From an uncultured Rhodospirillaceae bacterium (lineage in GTDB: Bacteria; Pseudomonadota; Alphaproteobacteria; MPNO01), in NCBI GenBank assembly GCA_964587515.1, contig CAZPMO010000003.1, positions 13,002 through 64,699 of the forward strand: 51,698 nucleotides of DNA, read 5' to 3'. Positions 28,078 through 35,294 of this stretch are shown here, in pieces. Each line of letters begins with the position of its first letter. The first letter of the stretch is position 1. A program made the position numbers and the translations under genes. The notes under the pieces were generated by a model. It ran no database searches. It saw only the letters and a program-made list of their open reading frames with translations, and was not told where the DNA came from.

Positions 28078-28188
28078 CTGATGTGCGATAGAGGCGCCGA
28101 GGGCGCACAGCAAACCAATAAAAACAAGCGGGAGGGCGGCGTTCGCAAGCGCCCGTAAATCGCGTTGCCGCAACAGGAACGGTGTAGG

Positions 28189-29076
28189 ATGTTGAAAACT
28201 CAGAGTAATCCGGCTGGAAACGAGCTTTCACGCTATATGCGGGAGGCCCATGAATACCCGCTGCTCGACGCCGAGACGGAATGGCGCCTGGCGCGGCGTT
28301 GGCGCGACCACGGCGACCAGGCCGCCGCCGACCGATTGGCGCATGCCTATCTGCGCCTGGTGGTGAAAATCGCCCGGGGTTTCTCCGGCTATAATGCGCC
28401 GCTGGCGGATCTGATTTCGGAAGGCAATGTCGGGCTGATGCAGGCGATTCACCGTTTAGACCCGGATCAAGGCTTCCGGCTGTCGACCTATGCCCCGTGG
28501 TGGATCCGCGCCGCGATCCAGGATTACGTGCTGCGCTCGGCTTCGCTGGTGCGCATGGGCACCACGGCGGCCCAGAAGAAACTGTTTTTCAATCTCAGGC
28601 GCATGAAGGCGGCGCGCCGAGAGCTTTCCGACGGCGATTTGGCGCCGGAAACGATCACCGAGATCGCCGAGACGTTGAAGGTCCCCGAAAACGAGGTCAT
28701 TGAGATGAATCGGCGCCTCATCGGCGGCACCCATTCGCTGAATGCGCCGTCGAACGCGGAGTCCGAGAGCGAATTTCAGGACCTGCTGGTCGACGAAGCG
28801 GATGATCCGGAACAGCTGGTCGCCGAAGCAGAGGAGCGGACCGAGCGTCGCCGATTGATGAGCAAGGCGCTCGGCGTCCTCAACGACCGCGAGCGGCGAA
28901 TTCTCACCGAACGCCGGCTCAGCGACGATCCGCCGACGCTGGAAGCGTTGGGCGACCACTACGGCATATCGCGGGAACGCGTGCGGCAGATCGAGGTGCG
29001 GGCTTTCGAAAAGCTACAAAAGGCGGTATTGAGCGACGCTTGGCCCACGATCCCGGTGGTCGATCAGCCCCACTGA
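28189..29076 (+). CDS. rpoH: RNA polymerase sigma-32 (heat-shock sigma factor)
   Basis: Sigma-70 family regions 2-4 plus the RpoH box (AAQKKLFFNLRRMK). Confidence 0.9.
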   Translation: MLKTQSNPAGNELSRYMREAHEYPLLDAETEWRLARRWRDHGDQAAADRLAHAYLRLVVKIARGFSGYNAPLADLISEGNVGLMQAIHRLDPDQGFRLSTYAPWWIRAAIQDYVLRSASLVRMGTTAAQKKLFFNLRRMKAARRELSDGDLAPETITEIAETLKVPENEVIEMNRRLIGGTHSLNAPSNAESESEFQDLLVDEADDPEQLVAEAEERTERRRLMSKALGVLNDRERRILTERRLSDDPPTLEALGDHYGISRERVRQIEVRAFEKLQKAVLSDAWPTIPVVDQPH

Positions 29077-29088
29077 CCTAAACCGAAA

Positions 29089-29116
29089 GCGGCCCCCCGA
29101 AGGGCCGCTTTTTTTT
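29089..29116 (+). terminator. Rho-independent terminator after rpoH
   Basis: GCGGCCC (29089-29095), loop cccgaa, GGGCCGC (29102-29108), then T8 (29109-29116). It sits between convergent genes. Confidence 0.75.
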
Positions 29117-29161: not shown

Positions 29162-29320
29162 TCAACCGCGGCGCCATGTCTCCGTCGATTTGCATTTGCG
29201 GCAAACACGTTCGCCGGCCCATTCGCTCTCGAACGGCTTGTGGCACATCAAGCAGGCCCGTGATTTGGGATCCGTTTTCACCGGCTCCTTGGTGATTTCC
29301 TTATATTGCGGTCGTTCCAT
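29162..29320 (-). CDS. Small Cys4 zinc-ribbon protein (52 aa)
   Basis: MERPQYKEITKEPVKTDPKSRACLMCHKPFESEWAGERVCRKCKSTETWRRG. AGGAGG SD lies 9 nt upstream of the ATG at 29320. Confidence 0.6.
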   Translation of the reverse strand: MERPQYKEITKEPVKTDPKSRACLMCHKPFESEWAGERVCRKCKSTETWRRG

Positions 29321-29760
29321 CCTTTGCGTCCTCCTCTTATCGAGCGTGGGCGCCGCGAGCCGGTTCCCAAATTTCAACGAACACACCATGGGCCCACCGA
29401 GGTAGCGCCGCGCGCTACCCGGTATTCCCCCAGAACGTTCCGTCCAAAAATAAAGTTGCGCCGATCCCTACCGTATCGCCAACATCGCCCGGTTTCCCGG
29501 CTTTTCGCGTGTCGCCACCGTTATCGAGCGCGGTTCCGTTTTCCGGCTCCCGCGCCACGCCCCCTATACGGTGGCAAGGATGGTTCCCTTTTTCGCCCGT
29601 TAGTGCATTGTTATTTAGATGAATTTTATACAATATTTCGATATCTAATTTCAAGCGCAATCGTACATACGTCCAGGCTCGCGAAATCCGCGCAGCACAT
29701 GGAATAATCGCCGATTTCAGGGGTTTTCCGCCCCGGTGACAGGACTAATCCGAAGCCGGA

Positions 29761-29802
29761 ACGGTCGTCGGGCGGATATCAACGGTCGTCGGGCGGATAT
29801 CA
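29761..29802. repeat. Perfect 2 x 21-bp tandem duplication at the 3' end of the ShlB-like gene
   Basis: acggtcgtcgggcggatatca occurs twice (29761-29781 and 29782-29802). The second copy contains the TGA stop (complement of 29800-29802). Confidence 0.9.
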
Positions 29803-31482
29803 AAAGACGGCGTTGAGCCGGAAAAAAAACCGCCCTGCATTATCGCCTTCCGATTCAACGGGTCTGGTTAGCGGAAACGCCCACTCGGCCGTCGCGGAAA
29901 CCCTGGCTGAGACATCGAGTGACAGCCCCAACCCGGTAGAGGCGACGGAGTCACGGTTCGAATTCTCGTCCCACACCGCACCCAGTTCATAAAACGAAAA
30001 TACGCGAAAGGTTTTGAATAACGGGTGGTCGGTCTCGCCGTTATACCTCAACTCGATCGCGCCGGCGGTGCCGTTATAGGACGAAATTTCAGACGGGCCA
30101 TAGGCCCGCCCATACAAACCGCCGCCGACCGAGAACTCTTCCGACGACAACAGAACATTGGGTGTAATCTGCCCGCTCGATGCGAGGTAGACGGACCAGT
30201 TCTCGATTATCGGTTGATCACGCCAGTAACCGGCGGTGAGTTTTATGTAATCACCACGCCCGCCATCATTGGAAAGATTGTCCGATCCGGGCGATTTGGC
30301 TTCCAGGAAATCGAATCCCTTGCTGACGCCTAAATTTGTGAAATTCCAGGCTTTCAAGCCGTCGAGAAATGAGTATTCGGTTTCAATTCTCAGGGAACGC
30401 ACGCGGTCGTTCGTTGCCGAGTCGGGCTCGGTGAGTTTCGAATTCAAATAGTCGAACCGGGCGGTGGCCGTCCATACGGATTCGCGCCCGAGGATAATCG
30501 GATGGCTAAGGCTCAAGGAAACATGAGTTCCCTTGCCCTCGAGTCTTGTAAGGTTGGATTCCGATACGGTGTCGATTTCGCTGCGCCATACGGACAAGCC
30601 CAAACGGGTGCCCTCGTCGCCGATCGGCTGATCGTGGAACAGCTCAGCAAAAATCAGCTCATCGGGATCGTCCGGAACGGAAAATGCCTTGAACCGGGTG
30701 TTTTCGAACATTCCCAATGAGGAATGAAGGCTCACGCCGGCATAACTCTGTAGCGGTCCGACGGCGCGCGAACCACGATTATCGAGCCCCATGAAACCCT
30801 CGGCCGGATCATAATCGAGTTTGACGATGAGTTCGAAGGCCCCGTCGGCACCCTTAATTTCACGGAGTTTGGGTTCAGCGGTGAATCCCGGGAGCTGGTT
30901 GAACAGCAGAACATAACGTTCGAGAGTGGAGAGGGTGAGCGGCCGCTCGGCGGATATATTCCTTCCGTATGCATTAAGAAGAGACCGCCGCTTGGGAACT
31001 TCGCCCGCCAGGGTCACTTTGTCGACAAAGCCTTCGATAATTTTGATCCGAAGAATGCCGAGATCCACAACCTGCTGCGGCGTAATGGCCCGGGAGAGCA
31101 TATATCCGTCTCGCCGGTATTTCTTGGTTATCGCGGCGAGGATTTTAGCGATATCCGAGGATTTGATTTCTACGCCCAGGTAATCCTCATAAAGCGGCGC
31201 CAGTTCTTCCAATTTATAGACGGTCGCCCCGGATAGAGAGACCCCCGTCAATGTGATGGCCTTTTCCGGCCTTTTCTCGGGTGCTCTTTCCGGCGCCGGA
31301 GGCGCGATGGGCTTCAGCGGAGTCGTGGGTTTGGCGGGAACCTGTAATCGTTTTTCCACCTGACCTGGTTCGGCGGAGCCGGCCGCGCCGTACGCCATTG
31401 AAGAATAAAGAATGTGGGACGTCGCCAGAAATATTAAGAGGGATCCCAATACCTGCCGACTGGAGAGAGTCGCCGAGGGCAT
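29800..31482 (-). CDS. ShlB/FhaC/HecB-family outer-membrane transporter (TpsB-like, POTRA + beta-barrel)
   Basis: POTRA-like region ITLTGVSLSGATVYKLEELAPLYEDYLG...GYMLSRAITPQQVVDLGILRIKIIEGFVDKVTL, the LDNRGSR block, and a C-terminal ...FFRLNAVF. The start at M46 (31482) gives a signal peptide. Alternatives are 31539 and 31617. Confidence 0.85.
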   Translation of the reverse strand: MPSATLSSRQVLGSLLIFLATSHILYSSMAYGAAGSAEPGQVEKRLQVPAKPTTPLKPIAPPAPERAPEKRPEKAITLTGVSLSGATVYKLEELAPLYEDYLGVEIKSSDIAKILAAITKKYRRDGYMLSRAITPQQVVDLGILRIKIIEGFVDKVTLAGEVPKRRSLLNAYGRNISAERPLTLSTLERYVLLFNQLPGFTAEPKLREIKGADGAFELIVKLDYDPAEGFMGLDNRGSRAVGPLQSYAGVSLHSSLGMFENTRFKAFSVPDDPDELIFAELFHDQPIGDEGTRLGLSVWRSEIDTVSESNLTRLEGKGTHVSLSLSHPIILGRESVWTATARFDYLNSKLTEPDSATNDRVRSLRIETEYSFLDGLKAWNFTNLGVSKGFDFLEAKSPGSDNLSNDGGRGDYIKLTAGYWRDQPIIENWSVYLASSGQITPNVLLSSEEFSVGGGLYGRAYGPSEISSYNGTAGAIELRYNGETDHPLFKTFRVFSFYELGAVWDENSNRDSVASTGLGLSLDVSARVSATAEWAFPLTRPVESEGDNAGRFFFRLNAVF

Positions 31483-31617
31483 GGAAAAACGCAAAGCCCG
31501 GCCGGCCGGTAAATCGACATTCACCCGTTCAACTGGCATAGCTAAATGCCCACGATTTATTGATCGTGAGTTTTTGATGGGCGAATTCCTTCCTAGAAGC
31601 CCAGTTTTGCAGTTCAA

Positions 31618-31853
31618 ATCAGATTTCGGCTTTGATTGATTAAGAATTCGTTAAACATGGTTTTATCAATAACCGCATTGATCAGATTGGATTTAAATAC
31701 AATTTTATTAAATCTAATTTCAAATTTAGATTAAGTTTATTAAGTATAATTAAAGCATTCGATTCATTAATAAAATAATAATTTTCTTATTCTAAAATAC
31801 CCGTCGAGTTAAGGGATATGTTCATCGCGTTTTAATGTCTCAAGGAGAGACAC
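31618..31853. promoter_or_regulatory. Extremely AT-rich divergent intergenic region
   Basis: My hand count gives 30 G+C in the 160 nt of 31641-31800 (about 19 %). It contains the inverted repeat AATCTAA-N8-TTAGATT (31711-31732). AAGGAGAG SD lies before the ATG at 31854. Confidence 0.5.
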
Positions 31854-32861
31854 ATGCTCATCGGTTTTAGCCAGACGATCGCCTCCATGCGAGTACCGTA
31901 TATGACAAGCCTCGGCCGAGCATCGGCCCATGCTTTGGCGCTCGCCGTCCTCACGATTCTTCTCAGCCATAATCCGGTGCTGGCCAATGGTGCGACCGGG
32001 TGGACGGTTTCACTTCTGTCCGGTCCGGTCGAGGCCAGACTAGGTAATTCCGCGTGGGTGCGGATTAAGGTAGGGGCTCAAATCCCACCTGGCAGCGTGG
32101 TGAGGACGCGTGGCAAGGGCCGTGTCACGCTGAAAAAAAGTGGCGATGTCGTGGCGGTTTCCCCCGGTAGCGAATTCAAGATTCCCGCCGGCGACGTGGG
32201 CGCCAAATCCAACGGGATCGTCCAAAAATTGGGCACTCTGCTTTTCAAGATCGTCACGAGGCCCGAAAAGCCCTTCAAGGTTGATACGCCGTATATGGCG
32301 GCCGTGATCAAAGGGACCACCTTTACGGTCTCGGTGGACAACCAGGGTACGGCGCTTCACGTAACAAAAGGCGCCGTCGAGGTCAAATCGGCCTTTACGG
32401 GCAAGACGGTTCTCGTCCGACCGGGACAGACCGCAACCGTTTCTCCGCGACCCGGCACGGACCTCAAGCTTCTCAACGGTCCTTCCGGTGGAGAGTCCAA
32501 CGGGGAACAGAAGTCCCAGGAAGGTCGCGACCGTTCGGGTAATTCGGTTGTCATCGACAAGCCATTGGGCGCCGGAAAACTTAATTTCGGCGCGCTCACG
32601 AAGGGGCTGGTGGGCCCGGATAACGCAAATAGCCGAGGTGGATTCGCAAAATCCGACGGCTCGGATCGCGGCATAGGCGGATCCGTACGCTCGGCCGTAA
32701 AGGGCGCCAAGGGCCGAGGCAACAACAAGGCCAAGACGGCAAAGAATAATGGCAGCAGCGGCGGCAGCAGTGGCGGCAGCAGCGGCGGCAGCAGTGGCGG
32801 CAGCAGCAGTGGCGGCAGCAGTGGCGGCAGCGGCGGCAGCAGCGGCGGCAAGAAAAAATAG
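31854..32861 (+). CDS. Secreted FecR-domain protein with Gly/Ser-rich C-terminal tail
   Basis: Signal peptide (ALALAVLTILLSHNPVLA/NG). FecR-like core (VRIKVGAQIPPGSVVRTRGKGRVTLKKSGDVVAVSPGSEFKI...VDTPYMAAVIKGTTFTVSV...HVTKGAVEV). Tail is NNGSSGGSSGGSSGGSSGGSSSGGSSGGSGGSSGGKKK. Confidence 0.8.
   Translation: MLIGFSQTIASMRVPYMTSLGRASAHALALAVLTILLSHNPVLANGATGWTVSLLSGPVEARLGNSAWVRIKVGAQIPPGSVVRTRGKGRVTLKKSGDVVAVSPGSEFKIPAGDVGAKSNGIVQKLGTLLFKIVTRPEKPFKVDTPYMAAVIKGTTFTVSVDNQGTALHVTKGAVEVKSAFTGKTVLVRPGQTATVSPRPGTDLKLLNGPSGGESNGEQKSQEGRDRSGNSVVIDKPLGAGKLNFGALTKGLVGPDNANSRGGFAKSDGSDRGIGGSVRSAVKGAKGRGNNKAKTAKNNGSSGGSSGGSSGGSSGGSSSGGSSGGSGGSSGGKKK
32751..32849 (+). repeat. GGC/AGC(AGT) trinucleotide-type low-complexity repeat encoding the Gly/Ser tail
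   Basis: ggcagcagcggc / ggcagcagtggc units reiterated about 8 times. Confidence 0.85.
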
Positions 32862-32999
32862 GGGTAATCGGTGGCGGCCTGGAATGGCCGCCGCCACCAC
32901 CCGACCACGCCACGACCGTCAACCAACGATTTCCAAGCGACTCGTAAAAATCGGAAAAATCGACCGACCCGGCCAAGCCCAAAGAAATGATATATTTCA

Positions 33000-35294
33000 A
33001 TGACGAAATTGAAATCCCGCCTTCCCTATCTGATCCTTTTCTTCTGCCTGGCCGGCGCATATCTGCTCGACGGGTTTCTGCCCCTCGAACATGCCCTGAT
33101 GGATCTCCGGTCCCATTTCTTCCAGAAGGAAGCGAGCGGCGAGACGGTTATCGTGGAGATCGATCCTCGCAGCCTGCGCGAACTCGACGTGTGGCCCTGG
33201 CCCCGGCGGCATCACGCCCAGGTGCTGGAACGGCTGCTGGAGGCGGGCGCCCGCCAGATCGCCGTCGATATCGATTTCAGTTCACGTTCCAACCCGGTCG
33301 ACGACCGGCGCCTCGCCGAGGTCCTGGAAAAGAGCCAGAACCGTGTGGTGCTTCCCGTATTCAGGCAGTTGGTCGTGCTCAGCGGCGGTGAACAGGAACT
33401 GATCTACACGGCGCCTTTAGAAGAATTCGAGAGGCATGTACGGCTCGCCGCGGTCGATATCCGGCTTGGACCGGATGGTTTGGTGCGGCGATACAACTCC
33501 TTTACCCGATGGAAAGACCGTTACATCGATAGCCTCGGGGCGATCATGGCGGGCGTGACCTCGGCGGACGAGGCCACCAACACGCCGGGCACCTTCTATG
33601 TCGACTTCGGCATCAGGCCGGAAACGGTGCCTCGGCTTTCCTTTGTCGATGTCCTGCACGGCCGGTTCAACCCGCAGGCGGTGGCCGGCAAGACCATCAT
33701 CATCGGCGCCGCCGCGGTCGAACTGGGCGATCACGTCGCGGTTCCTATTCACCGGATTTTGCCCGGCCCCGTCATGCAGGTGCTGGCGTCCGAATCCCTG
33801 ATCCAGGGCCGCGCCGTCCTGCGCAGCGCGGAACTGCCGATTCTCGCGATAACGCTATTAATCACACTGCTGTTCGGACCGCGCCTCTCGACCATCGGAT
33901 GGCGACGGGGCGGTATAGAGACATTGTTAGTTGCGCTGATCGGCCCGGCGACGTCTTACGTCGTTTTTATGGTTTATCCGCTGAGCGTCGATACGGCGCC
34001 GTTGATCCTGGCGCCGCTTCTGTCGTTCATTCTGAGCCAGTTAATGACCATCGACCGGCAGGCGGTCTGGCTATTCAAAAACCAGATGGCGGAAATGCAT
34101 CGGCGGGAAATGATGTCGTCCGTGATCAACGACAGTTTCGACGGAATCATGATCACCGACCATTTCGGCAACGTGAAAATGTTCAATCCCATGGCGACGC
34201 AGCTCCTCGGGTTCGAACCGCATGAGGTCGAGGGAAGCAAGATCGATACCCTGATCCCCTTGCCCGGGCCGGTGGCCGCTTTATACAACGAGGACAGGGA
34301 GGCGACGGGCGACGGCGTTCGGGTCGACGTGGTCGGACCTTTGGACCTGACCCTGAAGCATAAGGACGGCACCGAGTTGGACACGGAACTGATCGTCAGC
34401 TCCTCGAAACTCCGTATCCAGAATCATCCGCTGGAACGCCGTACCCATGACCGAGATATGTATATTTATACGTTCCGGGACCTTTCCGAACGGCAGCGCG
34501 CCAGAACGGCGATCGCGGCCAAGGAACAGGCGGAACTGGCCAACCGGGCGAAGACCGAATTCCTGGCGAATATGAGTCACGAATTGCGGACGCCGCTCAA
34601 CGCCGTCATCGGGTTCTCCGACCTGATGAAGACCGAGGTATACGGGCCGCTGGGCGCGGACCAATACAAGACCTTTACCAACGACATCAATTCCAGCGCC
34701 CACCACCTGCTCGAAGTGATCAACGACATTCTCGACATGTCGAAGATCGAGGCCGGCGAAATGACCTTGAACGAGGAGGAATTCGATCTCGAGGCGACGA
34801 TCCTTGCGAGCATCCGCCTGCTTAACGAGCGCGTTCAGAAAGGCGGCCTGACCTTGTCTTTCGAACGTCCTCCTGAGTCGCCGAGAATTGTGGGCGATCC
34901 CCGTCTTACCAAGCAAATACTGCTTAACCTGCTATCGAACGCGGTCAAATTCACGCCGAAGGACGGTCGCATCGAGGTCCGGGTCGATATGGAGAACGAT
35001 GGCGGGCTCGCCATCACCATCATCGATTCAGGCATCGGCATCTCCAACGAAGACCAGGAGAAGATCCTTCAGCCGTTTCAGCAGGCCGATAACTCCTTCA
35101 CGCGCAATTTCGAGGGCACCGGTCTGGGCTTGTCGCTCGTGCAGTCGATGATCCAATTACACGGTGGGACGTTCCGCTTTAAGAGCGAGCTTGACGTCGG
35201 CACCACCGTGACCGCGGTATTCCCGCCCGAACGCGTAAAATCTGTGTCGAATGTGACCCGCCTGAACGCCATGGGCCTGGTCGACGCCGGTTGA
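33000..35294 (+). CDS. CHASE2-domain sensor histidine kinase (CHASE2-TM-PAS-HisKA-HATPase)
   Basis: N-terminal TM, then the CHASE2 hallmark VIVEIDPRSLRELDVWPWPRRHHAQVLERLLEAGARQIAVDIDFS. Three or more TM helices and a PAS-like segment follow. H-box is SHELRTPLNAVIGFSDLM and G-box is GTGLGLSLV. No receiver domain or adjacent response regulator. Confidence 0.9.
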   Translation: MTKLKSRLPYLILFFCLAGAYLLDGFLPLEHALMDLRSHFFQKEASGETVIVEIDPRSLRELDVWPWPRRHHAQVLERLLEAGARQIAVDIDFSSRSNPVDDRRLAEVLEKSQNRVVLPVFRQLVVLSGGEQELIYTAPLEEFERHVRLAAVDIRLGPDGLVRRYNSFTRWKDRYIDSLGAIMAGVTSADEATNTPGTFYVDFGIRPETVPRLSFVDVLHGRFNPQAVAGKTIIIGAAAVELGDHVAVPIHRILPGPVMQVLASESLIQGRAVLRSAELPILAITLLITLLFGPRLSTIGWRRGGIETLLVALIGPATSYVVFMVYPLSVDTAPLILAPLLSFILSQLMTIDRQAVWLFKNQMAEMHRREMMSSVINDSFDGIMITDHFGNVKMFNPMATQLLGFEPHEVEGSKIDTLIPLPGPVAALYNEDREATGDGVRVDVVGPLDLTLKHKDGTELDTELIVSSSKLRIQNHPLERRTHDRDMYIYTFRDLSERQRARTAIAAKEQAELANRAKTEFLANMSHELRTPLNAVIGFSDLMKTEVYGPLGADQYKTFTNDINSSAHHLLEVINDILDMSKIEAGEMTLNEEEFDLEATILASIRLLNERVQKGGLTLSFERPPESPRIVGDPRLTKQILLNLLSNAVKFTPKDGRIEVRVDMENDGGLAITIIDSGIGISNEDQEKILQPFQQADNSFTRNFEGTGLGLSLVQSMIQLHGGTFRFKSELDVGTTVTAVFPPERVKSVSNVTRLNAMGLVDAG

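Follow-up and report, generated by a model that had tools for sequence, protein, structure and literature searches.

What does a two-partner-secretion (TPS) transporter do at a locus that encodes no TPS exoprotein for it to secrete? This question is raised by a 51,698-nucleotide (nt) stretch of contig CAZPMO010000003.1 from an uncultured Rhodospirillaceae bacterium (the 51.7-kb window, hereafter the window), in which the gene for a TpsB-type outer-membrane barrel diverges from genes for an exported FecR-like protein and a CHASE2 sensor histidine kinase. An earlier note on this DNA had described the three genes as a possible functional unit, and open reading frames (ORFs) together with Pfam matches confirmed the genes and their domains exactly where that note had placed them (Table 1). 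We report that the barrel–FecR–CHASE2 arrangement is real, widespread and previously undescribed, and that it occurs in many alphaproteobacterial genomes and metagenomes. Comparative sequence analysis gives good support to a functional link among the three proteins. As to the nature of this link, we propose that the trio forms an envelope-spanning sensory input module, in which the FecR-like protein would be the client of the barrel, its tail would be threaded, and its FecR domain would act on CHASE2; the evidence leaves us evenly divided on this proposal.

Judged by architecture and fold, the barrel is a complete and intact TpsB-type transporter, for which transport is predicted. Pfam matches to POTRA_2 (E 1.8e-17, 63.4 bits against a cut-off of 24) and ShlB (E 7.3e-10, 39.2 bits against a cut-off of 22.7) were obtained, and the AlphaFold2 (AF2) model, with a predicted local distance difference test (pLDDT) score of 86, comprises two POTRA units followed by 16 long strands. 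The protein has a signal peptide, and a short H1-like N-terminal helix was modeled with low confidence at model residues 46-57 (pLDDT 56-79). Its top matches in the PDB were CdiB (6WIM; TM-score 0.71-0.75) and FhaC (4QL0/4QKY). The L6 motif, equivalent to VRGY/F, reads GRAY and lies in GGGLYGRAYGPSE; the barrel-wall (F/G)xDxG motif reads FYELG, with Glu replacing Asp. Positions that are conserved in TpsA-linked barrels are equally kept in FecR-linked ones, namely the POTRA motifs, DNRG, the L6 GRAY and the C-terminal R.FF. Because the window barrel retains every position conserved among its TpsA-linked relatives, it looks transport-competent rather than degenerate. With regard to the start of the gene, the longest ORF reaches 31617, with 31518 and 31539 as other possible starts upstream; a metagenome protein (P0010, 573 amino acids [aa]) is identical to the barrel across 29800-31518.

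No partner of the classical kind accompanies this transporter. A hidden Markov model (HMM) built from 39 TPS domains and run with filters off found no TPS domain in the window (best E 0.34), consistent with the earlier claim that no TpsA-type exoprotein is encoded there, and a cognate TPS-domain TpsA was likewise absent from all FecR-linked loci that were annotated. The FecR-like protein itself was considered as a TpsA and rejected: it has no TPS domain (PF05860), Pfam detected only FecR in it, Foldseek returned FecR-type folds only, and the TPS HMM gave no match. The description of the barrel as an orphan is thus correct insofar as TpsA is missing, but a conserved partner, the FecR-like protein, is present.

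The FecR-like gene, with AGGAG 6 nt upstream of its ATG, encodes an N-terminal signal-peptide-like helix and, directly after it, a FecR domain (PF04773; E 5.6e-9, 36.8 bits against a Pfam cut-off of 24). In the AF2 model, residues 48-207 form a confident all-beta domain, and the chain is disordered past about residue 220. When the FecR domain was submitted to Foldseek, the best matches were BDI_1681 (4M0N) and the C-terminal cell-surface signaling domain of PupR (6OVK), with E values of 5e-7 to 1e-6 over ~132 residues. The ordered part of the protein therefore has the fold of the PupR/FecR periplasmic signaling domains. Because domains of the PupR/BDI_1681 fold link a barrel in the outer membrane to a transducer in the inner one, this similarity supports the trio as a relay. 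Beyond the domain lies a short linear motif with the consensus LGxxxLNxxxxTxGL(A/V) across relatives, of which KPLGAGKLNFGALTKGLVG is the window version. The motif HMM scored 25.9 bits in the window protein and at least 10 bits in 75 of 118 tails of the family, and in none of the shuffled tails. After the motif, the window protein continues in GGS repeats that end in KKK. The post-motif tails of relatives are rich in Gly, Asn, Ser and Ala (21% Gly, 15% Ala, 12% Asn and 9% Ser in the family), span 60 to >500 residues, and usually finish in basic residues (K/R/H) or, in a minority, in poly-Asp.

The third gene lies on the same strand as the FecR-like gene, 138 nt downstream of it. In its product a CHASE2 domain (E 1.1e-35) lies between transmembrane segments and is followed by PAS, HisKA and HATPase_c domains. 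The catalytic motifs are intact (H-box HELRTPLN, DSGIGI for DxGxG, and GTGLGL for GxGLG), and the kinase is 43% identical to those of three homologous trios (L012, L014 and L026). No receiver domain was found in the window at E<=1, either by phmmer with CheY or with an 18-sequence REC HMM with filters off; this extends to the entire window the previous claim that no response regulator is adjacent. Kinase-type homologous loci also lacked a REC-domain gene within about 8 kb. Because these loci, too, have no adjacent receiver gene, an orphan kinase is the norm for the family.

Conservation of the trio was assessed in two samples of loci. The barrel-first sample, from a scan of one genome per species with a barrel alignment, comprised 80 loci, in which CHASE2, FecR, TPS and barrel genes were identified by HMM. 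For the FecR-first sample, a metagenome scan yielded 80 further loci; counts use 56 complete genes for CHASE2 adjacency and 48 assessable loci for an upstream barrel. A profile restricted to the FecR domain found 1094 proteins at E<=1e-8, and the full-length FecR-like query just 9, probably because the GGS tail swamped the word index. One locus (L173) represents the same population as the window (98.7% identity, with differences mainly at scaffolding gaps) and adds nothing. In the barrel-first sample, a FecR gene, with CHASE2 wherever the contig permits, diverged from the barrel in about 26 of the 80 loci, and the barrels nearest to that of the window (37-41% identity) all had this arrangement. 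Three types of neighborhood were seen: the order of the window, with the barrel divergent from FecR and then CHASE2 with its output, which includes Hyphococcus flavus and a Bosea plasmid; an Azospirillum type, in which a 233-aa periplasmic protein is followed by a CHASE2 cyclase and then the barrel; and, among more distant relatives, the classical order of barrel followed by TpsA, in Nitrospinota, Magnetospirillum and others. In a neighbor-joining tree, FecR-linked barrels grouped together, apart from TpsA-linked ones. In the FecR-first sample, a CHASE2 gene was adjacent to 53 of the 56 complete FecR genes, and a barrel lay upstream in 38 of the 48 assessable loci. The adjacency of FecR and CHASE2, which the earlier note had put forward, is thus borne out by these counts and by published reports (PMC5192318, PMC9239204), and the co-occurrence of the three families that it had asked about recurs in both samples.

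Several relatives of these loci depart from the pattern of the window. One of the barrels nearest to that of the window (L004:6439-8181; 42% identity) is solitary: genes for FecR, CHASE2 and TpsA are absent within 6-7 kb, and Rieske dioxygenase and ABC-F genes adjoin it. At another locus (L089:3000-6777), where the FecR protein is 51% identical to that of the window, insertion sequence elements (DDE_Tnp_1/DUF4096) lie between barrel and FecR, and two ORFs stand in place of one for the barrel, as if this copy of the module were decaying. The Azospirillum loci (L001, L028, L030-L032, L035-L037, L042, L043, L045, L047, L053 and L086) carry a co-directional variant module. Their CHASE2 protein is an adenylate/guanylate cyclase, their barrel clade nests among TpsA-linked barrels, and a hidden FecR domain in the 233-aa signal-peptide protein was ruled out (hhalign probability 1.3%). 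In Gammaproteobacteria bacterium GD-1 (L087:329-11821), a CHASE2 cyclase gene diverges from a bona fide TpsB gene followed by TpsA (2229 aa), a layout that may point to a broader association of CHASE2 with two-partner secretion. Unusual C-terminal domains were seen in the TpsA cargos of the sister barrel clade, namely Peptidase_C14 (caspase-like; Azospirillaceae and Terasakiella), CHAP (Magnetospirillum) and DUF5649 (Nitrospina), at L005/L041:8840-14393, L021:11613-15353, L038:2174-5548 and L034:11606-17257.

The type of tail on the FecR protein tracks the barrel: low-complexity tails occur with a barrel, and barrel-less relatives include proteins whose tail is a transmembrane helix. The motif and a C-terminal transmembrane tail were never found together, and 30 of 34 motif-bearing copies sit in barrel loci. 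A C-terminal transmembrane helix was present in four FecR relatives without a barrel directly upstream; one further such copy, inside a barrel locus (L119), is a second paralogue that adjoins CHASE2. This covariation, together with the separation of FecR-linked barrels in the tree, agrees with the earlier suggestion that the FecR-like protein may be the cargo or partner of the barrel, and makes that role likely. The FecR domain can be held in the envelope in four alternative ways: by an inner-membrane helix, by LysM (Burkholderia, PMC5192318), by a fused barrel (NsrA, discussed below), or by a tail plus a separate TpsB-type barrel. Two FecR paralogues occur in each of four loci (L046, L049, L062 and L119), a Gly/Asn-tailed one by the barrel and a transmembrane-ended one of ~245 aa by a CHASE2-GGDEF-EAL gene, which suggests a FecR-FecR relay there.

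The cytoplasmic output of the CHASE2 protein was found to vary. Among 48 FecR-linked CHASE2 proteins, 20 are HisKA/HATPase kinases and 28 are (GGDEF-)EAL enzymes; of the cultured carriers, Hyphococcus flavus has the kinase and the Bosea plasmid the GGDEF-EAL form. Envelope parts that are constant, combined with cytoplasmic outputs that are swapped, bear the signature of a shared input module.

How such a module might work can be sketched as follows. The POTRA domains would recognize the short motif of the FecR-like protein, and the disordered tail would be threaded into or through the barrel pore, so that the FecR domain is tethered to the outer membrane and the tail is displayed on the cell surface. 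Staying in the periplasm, the FecR domain would contact the CHASE2 domain. Surface or envelope events (binding, pulling, cleavage or loss of the tail) would then alter kinase activity, and the kinase would pass the signal to a response regulator encoded elsewhere. In its most specific form, this proposal is that a clade of TpsB barrels was recruited for signaling, with a TPS-less FecR-fold client that is recognized by a linear motif and whose threaded tail makes it a tether from the surface to CHASE2; we offer this form tentatively, as possible rather than probable.

Known systems provide precedents for parts of this scheme. The closest studied analogue is NsrA–CyaK of Sinorhizobium meliloti. 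NsrA (1190 aa, its sequence reconstructed from the pSymB record) is encoded directly upstream of the CHASE2 cyclase gene cyaK and scans as a signal peptide, FecR, TPR and barrel; its FecR domain is 30% identical to that of the window protein over 125 aa (E = 7e-8). Genetically, CyaK and CyaD1/D2 require NsrA to perceive signals from the plant and from ribosomal proteins (PMC7529298, PMC13001267). In both systems, a FecR domain with a signal peptide is tied to an outer-membrane beta-barrel and is encoded immediately upstream of a CHASE2 receptor. However, NsrA merges FecR, TPR and barrel in one polypeptide, whereas the window genes are separate and lack TPR; the output of NsrA–CyaK is a cyclase and that of the window a kinase; and NsrA, unlike the window protein, has neither the Gly/Asn tail nor the motif. 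Moreover, the NsrA barrel is not of the ShlB/Omp85 type, as it has no POTRA or ShlB match and no BLAST similarity to the window barrel. A description of the trio as a split NsrA was therefore rejected, because the barrels are not homologous; it fits no more than the FecR domain and the overall logic. A second precedent is the Burkholderia "BiofilmReg" operon (response regulator, LysM/FecR, CHASE2 kinase, DUF4136), with a LysM-truncated pair in P. aeruginosa (PMC5192318). Here also, an exported FecR-domain protein is encoded directly upstream of a CHASE2-PAS histidine kinase, but a LysM (peptidoglycan) anchor replaces tail and barrel, a response regulator is adjacent, and no Omp85-type barrel is present. 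The earlier statement that no experimentally established function was known for such a trio overlooked both of these systems.

The FecA-FecR-FecI and PupB-PupR systems resemble the trio in placing a periplasmic domain of FecR fold between an outer-membrane barrel and an inner-membrane signaling protein. They differ in that the window protein lacks the cytoplasmic anti-sigma domain, the N-terminal transmembrane anchor and the STN subdomain, and in that neither a TonB-dependent transducer nor an extracytoplasmic function sigma factor is adjacent, the neighboring sigma factor being of the four-region RpoH type. The logic of FecA-FecR and of NsrA–CyaK is the same as that of the proposed relay; the version in the window is built from a two-partner-secretion barrel. 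With two-partner secretion proper (FhaC/FhaB, CdiB/CdiA, ShlB/ShlA), the window barrel shares the TpsB architecture, the fold, and the L6 and POTRA positions. CdiA and FhaB span the outer membrane and are partly retained in the periplasm while engaged with TpsB, which is the topology proposed here for the FecR-like protein. In contrast to those systems, the partner in the window is a 335-aa FecR-fold protein without a TPS domain, and the gene order is divergent rather than co-directional tpsB-tpsA.

Two further clusters were compared. A Campylobacterota CHASE2-cyclase cluster comprising a cyclase, a phosphodiesterase, a FecR-domain protein of the outer membrane and a TPR protein has spread horizontally (PMC9239204). 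It also groups CHASE2 with a FecR-domain envelope protein, but its output is cyclic AMP, its partner is a TPR protein, and a ShlB-type barrel has not been reported. In Caulobacter, CCNA_00635-00639 encode a CHASE2 receptor, a hypothetical protein, a TPR protein and two "heme:hemopexin-binding" proteins, which are co-repressed by the small RNA AbnZ (PMC11724286). From their annotation alone, the latter two may be HxuA/B-type (two-partner secretion) proteins, and the cluster may be a Caulobacter version of the CHASE2-barrel link. Among the papers searched, none mentions CHASE2 alongside ShlB or two-partner secretion, and the sole match for FecR combined with TpsB was the regulatory Vre/Pdt link of P. 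aeruginosa.

A number of points weigh against the proposed module. The physical contacts among the barrel, the FecR-like protein and CHASE2 are ones that we infer, and the role given to motif and tail is a guess because both are unstructured in the monomer model. The FecR-like protein lacks the TPS domain, the sole recognition element known for TpsB transporters, and its disordered tail offers no obvious folding energy for driving export. Among relatives, neither FecR nor CHASE2 lies within 6-7 kb of the close barrel L004, six FecR genes with low-complexity tails have no upstream barrel, and Azospirillum joins a barrel to CHASE2 without FecR.

Other explanations were considered. It could be that the barrel acts as a classical secretion system, exporting the whole FecR-like protein to the surface or the medium as an adhesin or matrix protein, with the CHASE2 kinase as a mere neighboring regulator or one that senses something else. 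This explanation would fit the completeness of the TpsB barrel and the export of TpsA cargo by its sister clades, as well as weak NCBIfam matches between the FecR-like protein and Lsa33 and Lsa19, surface adhesins of Leptospira. We nevertheless consider it unlikely. Homologous FecR domains work with CHASE2 where there is no barrel, anchored in the inner membrane (P0088/L090), and others are fused to LysM (PMC5192318), so that the partner of the FecR domain is periplasmic. In addition, the 95% FecR–CHASE2 adjacency with swapped outputs is hard to explain if CHASE2 is unrelated, and no regulator gene that would make the kinase a local regulator is nearby.

Alternatively, the barrel may be a receptor or anchor that translocates nothing, with POTRA binding the FecR domain, as the FecA signaling domain binds FecR, and with the tail serving as a spacer or contacting peptidoglycan or lipopolysaccharide. 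NsrA and FecA/PupB are precedents for a barrel that signals to a FecR-fold domain, and the Azospirillum loci and L087 connect barrel and CHASE2 without FecR. Yet such a receptor leaves unexplained why tail and motif are restricted to copies without a membrane anchor, mostly in barrel loci, and why all transport-related TpsB positions, including L6, are conserved; we rate it, too, as improbable.

Base composition bears on a third explanation, namely that the genes are adjacent by coincidence and that the barrel either works for a TpsA whose gene is elsewhere or is a leftover on a low-GC island of recent acquisition. The GC content is 62.5% in the window as a whole and about 62-67% in the flanks, compared with 41-58% at 29.0-32.0 kb and 30% in the patch at 29589-29668. 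In the upstream tract it is 26-27% (31600-31850) or 22.5% (31600-31799), and the core at 31691-31790, with 12%, is by a wide margin the lowest-GC 100-nt stretch in the window; the tract of 19% G+C claimed previously is thus real, although the figure was approximate. GC at third codon positions (GC3), which is 0.74-0.83 in typical genes, is 0.635 in the barrel gene, 0.688 in the FecR-like gene and a normal 0.767 in the kinase gene. Hence the lower-GC segment described in the earlier note takes in the first two genes but not the third. Over 56 homologous trios, the difference between barrel and kinase GC3 centers on zero, and the window is the most negative (-0.126). The barrel gene is bounded by the two copies of an imperfect direct repeat, each ~40 nt long (29617-29654 and 31683-31723), which includes an exact 12-mer, ATCTAATTTCAA, that occurs at 29643 and 31712 only (0.07 expected by chance). 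This repeat could be a site for a shared regulator, a second plus-strand promoter antisense to the 3′ end of the barrel gene, or the trace of a cassette replacement.

The extreme GC3 deficit, the repeat on both sides of the barrel gene and the solitary L004 barrel would all suit coincidence, but this explanation is very improbable and is effectively excluded by the conservation of the arrangement across dozens of species and environments, besides which FecR-linked and TpsA-linked barrels separate in the tree, the kinase has native composition, AT-rich cores recur at homologous loci, and the barrel ORF is intact with its motifs conserved. The divergent barrel–FecR intergenic core has <=25% GC in ~23 homologous loci of GC-rich genomes (in one case 10% within a 68%-GC contig), and the AT-rich core is therefore a regulatory trait of the family rather than a scar of transfer. 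Cores of 9-25% GC per 100 nt were seen at L018, L023, L009, L008, L010, L026, L022, L096 and others; they have the words ATTTTATTAAAT and ATTTTAAATAAAT in common, which suggests a conserved regulatory or nucleoid-protein target. The horizontal acquisition that had been proposed is only partly supported: the atypical GC3 of the barrel and FecR-like genes speaks for it, and the native kinase and the recurrent core speak against it; partial replacement of the barrel and FecR-like genes is possible from these sequence statistics.

The features of the locus are collected in Table 1. The trio is neighbored by rpoH (28165-29076), a small Cys-rich ORF and a glyoxalase-family gene. The terminator of rpoH (29085-29112) separates it from the small ORF (29162-29389, minus strand), which lies between that terminator and the barrel gene and encodes 75 aa with two CxxC pairs (CLMCH...CRKCK) and no family match. 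A perfect 20-nt tandem duplication, AACGGTCGTCGGGCGGATAT, with 21-nt spacing at 29760-29800, abuts the barrel stop codon. No Rfam family reached its gathering score in the window, no match to a sigma-70-type promoter was found within 29.0-35.5 kb, and PADLOC identified no defense system, giving only a generic ATPase match in the kinase.

Table 1. Features of the barrel–FecR–CHASE2 locus, in positions of the window.
Feature	Position	Strand	Basis
TpsB-type (ShlB/FhaC/CdiB-like) barrel gene	29800..31482	-	Pfam POTRA_2 + ShlB
Divergent intergenic (promoter) region, AT-rich core 31691-31790	31483..31853	.	GC profile
Exported FecR-fold protein, 335 aa	31854..32861	+	Pfam FecR; AGGAG before ATG
FecR beta-domain, aa 48-207	31995..32474	+	AF2 pLDDT >90; Foldseek
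Conserved short linear motif KPLGAGKLNFGALTKGLVG, aa 236-254	32559..32615	+	Alignment; motif HMM
Disordered Gly/Ser/Asn/Lys low-complexity tail, KKK at end	32616..32858	+	pLDDT <50
CHASE2 sensor histidine kinase, 764 aa	33000..35294	+	Pfam
Kinase domains	CHASE2 33042-33875, PAS 34107-34403, HisKA 34548-34757, HATPase_c 34893-35231	+	Pfam
AT-rich patch 3′ of barrel, imperfect direct repeat of 31683-31723; module membership uncertain	29617..29654	+	

CHASE2 is a common bacterial sensor domain for which, to our knowledge, no ligand has been known since the domain was defined. Its near-obligate pairing with an exported FecR-fold protein suggests that what CHASE2 reads is another protein and not a small molecule; across a large clade, the pair is complemented by an outer-membrane barrel dedicated to it. 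Cultured carriers are Hyphococcus flavus and Bosea sp. Tri-49, and Azospirillum for the variant without FecR. The module feeds kinases, cyclic di-GMP enzymes and, in related arrangements, cyclases; given these varied outputs, one input mechanism may control several second-messenger systems across Alphaproteobacteria of soil and sea. With this barrel, a TPS domain would for the first time be missing from the conserved partner of a TpsB-type transporter. If the FecR-like protein is indeed a threaded tether, it would provide a protein ligand for CHASE2, and the module would represent a third type of trans-envelope signaling, beside TonB-dependent cell-surface signaling and Rcs-type lipoprotein threading.

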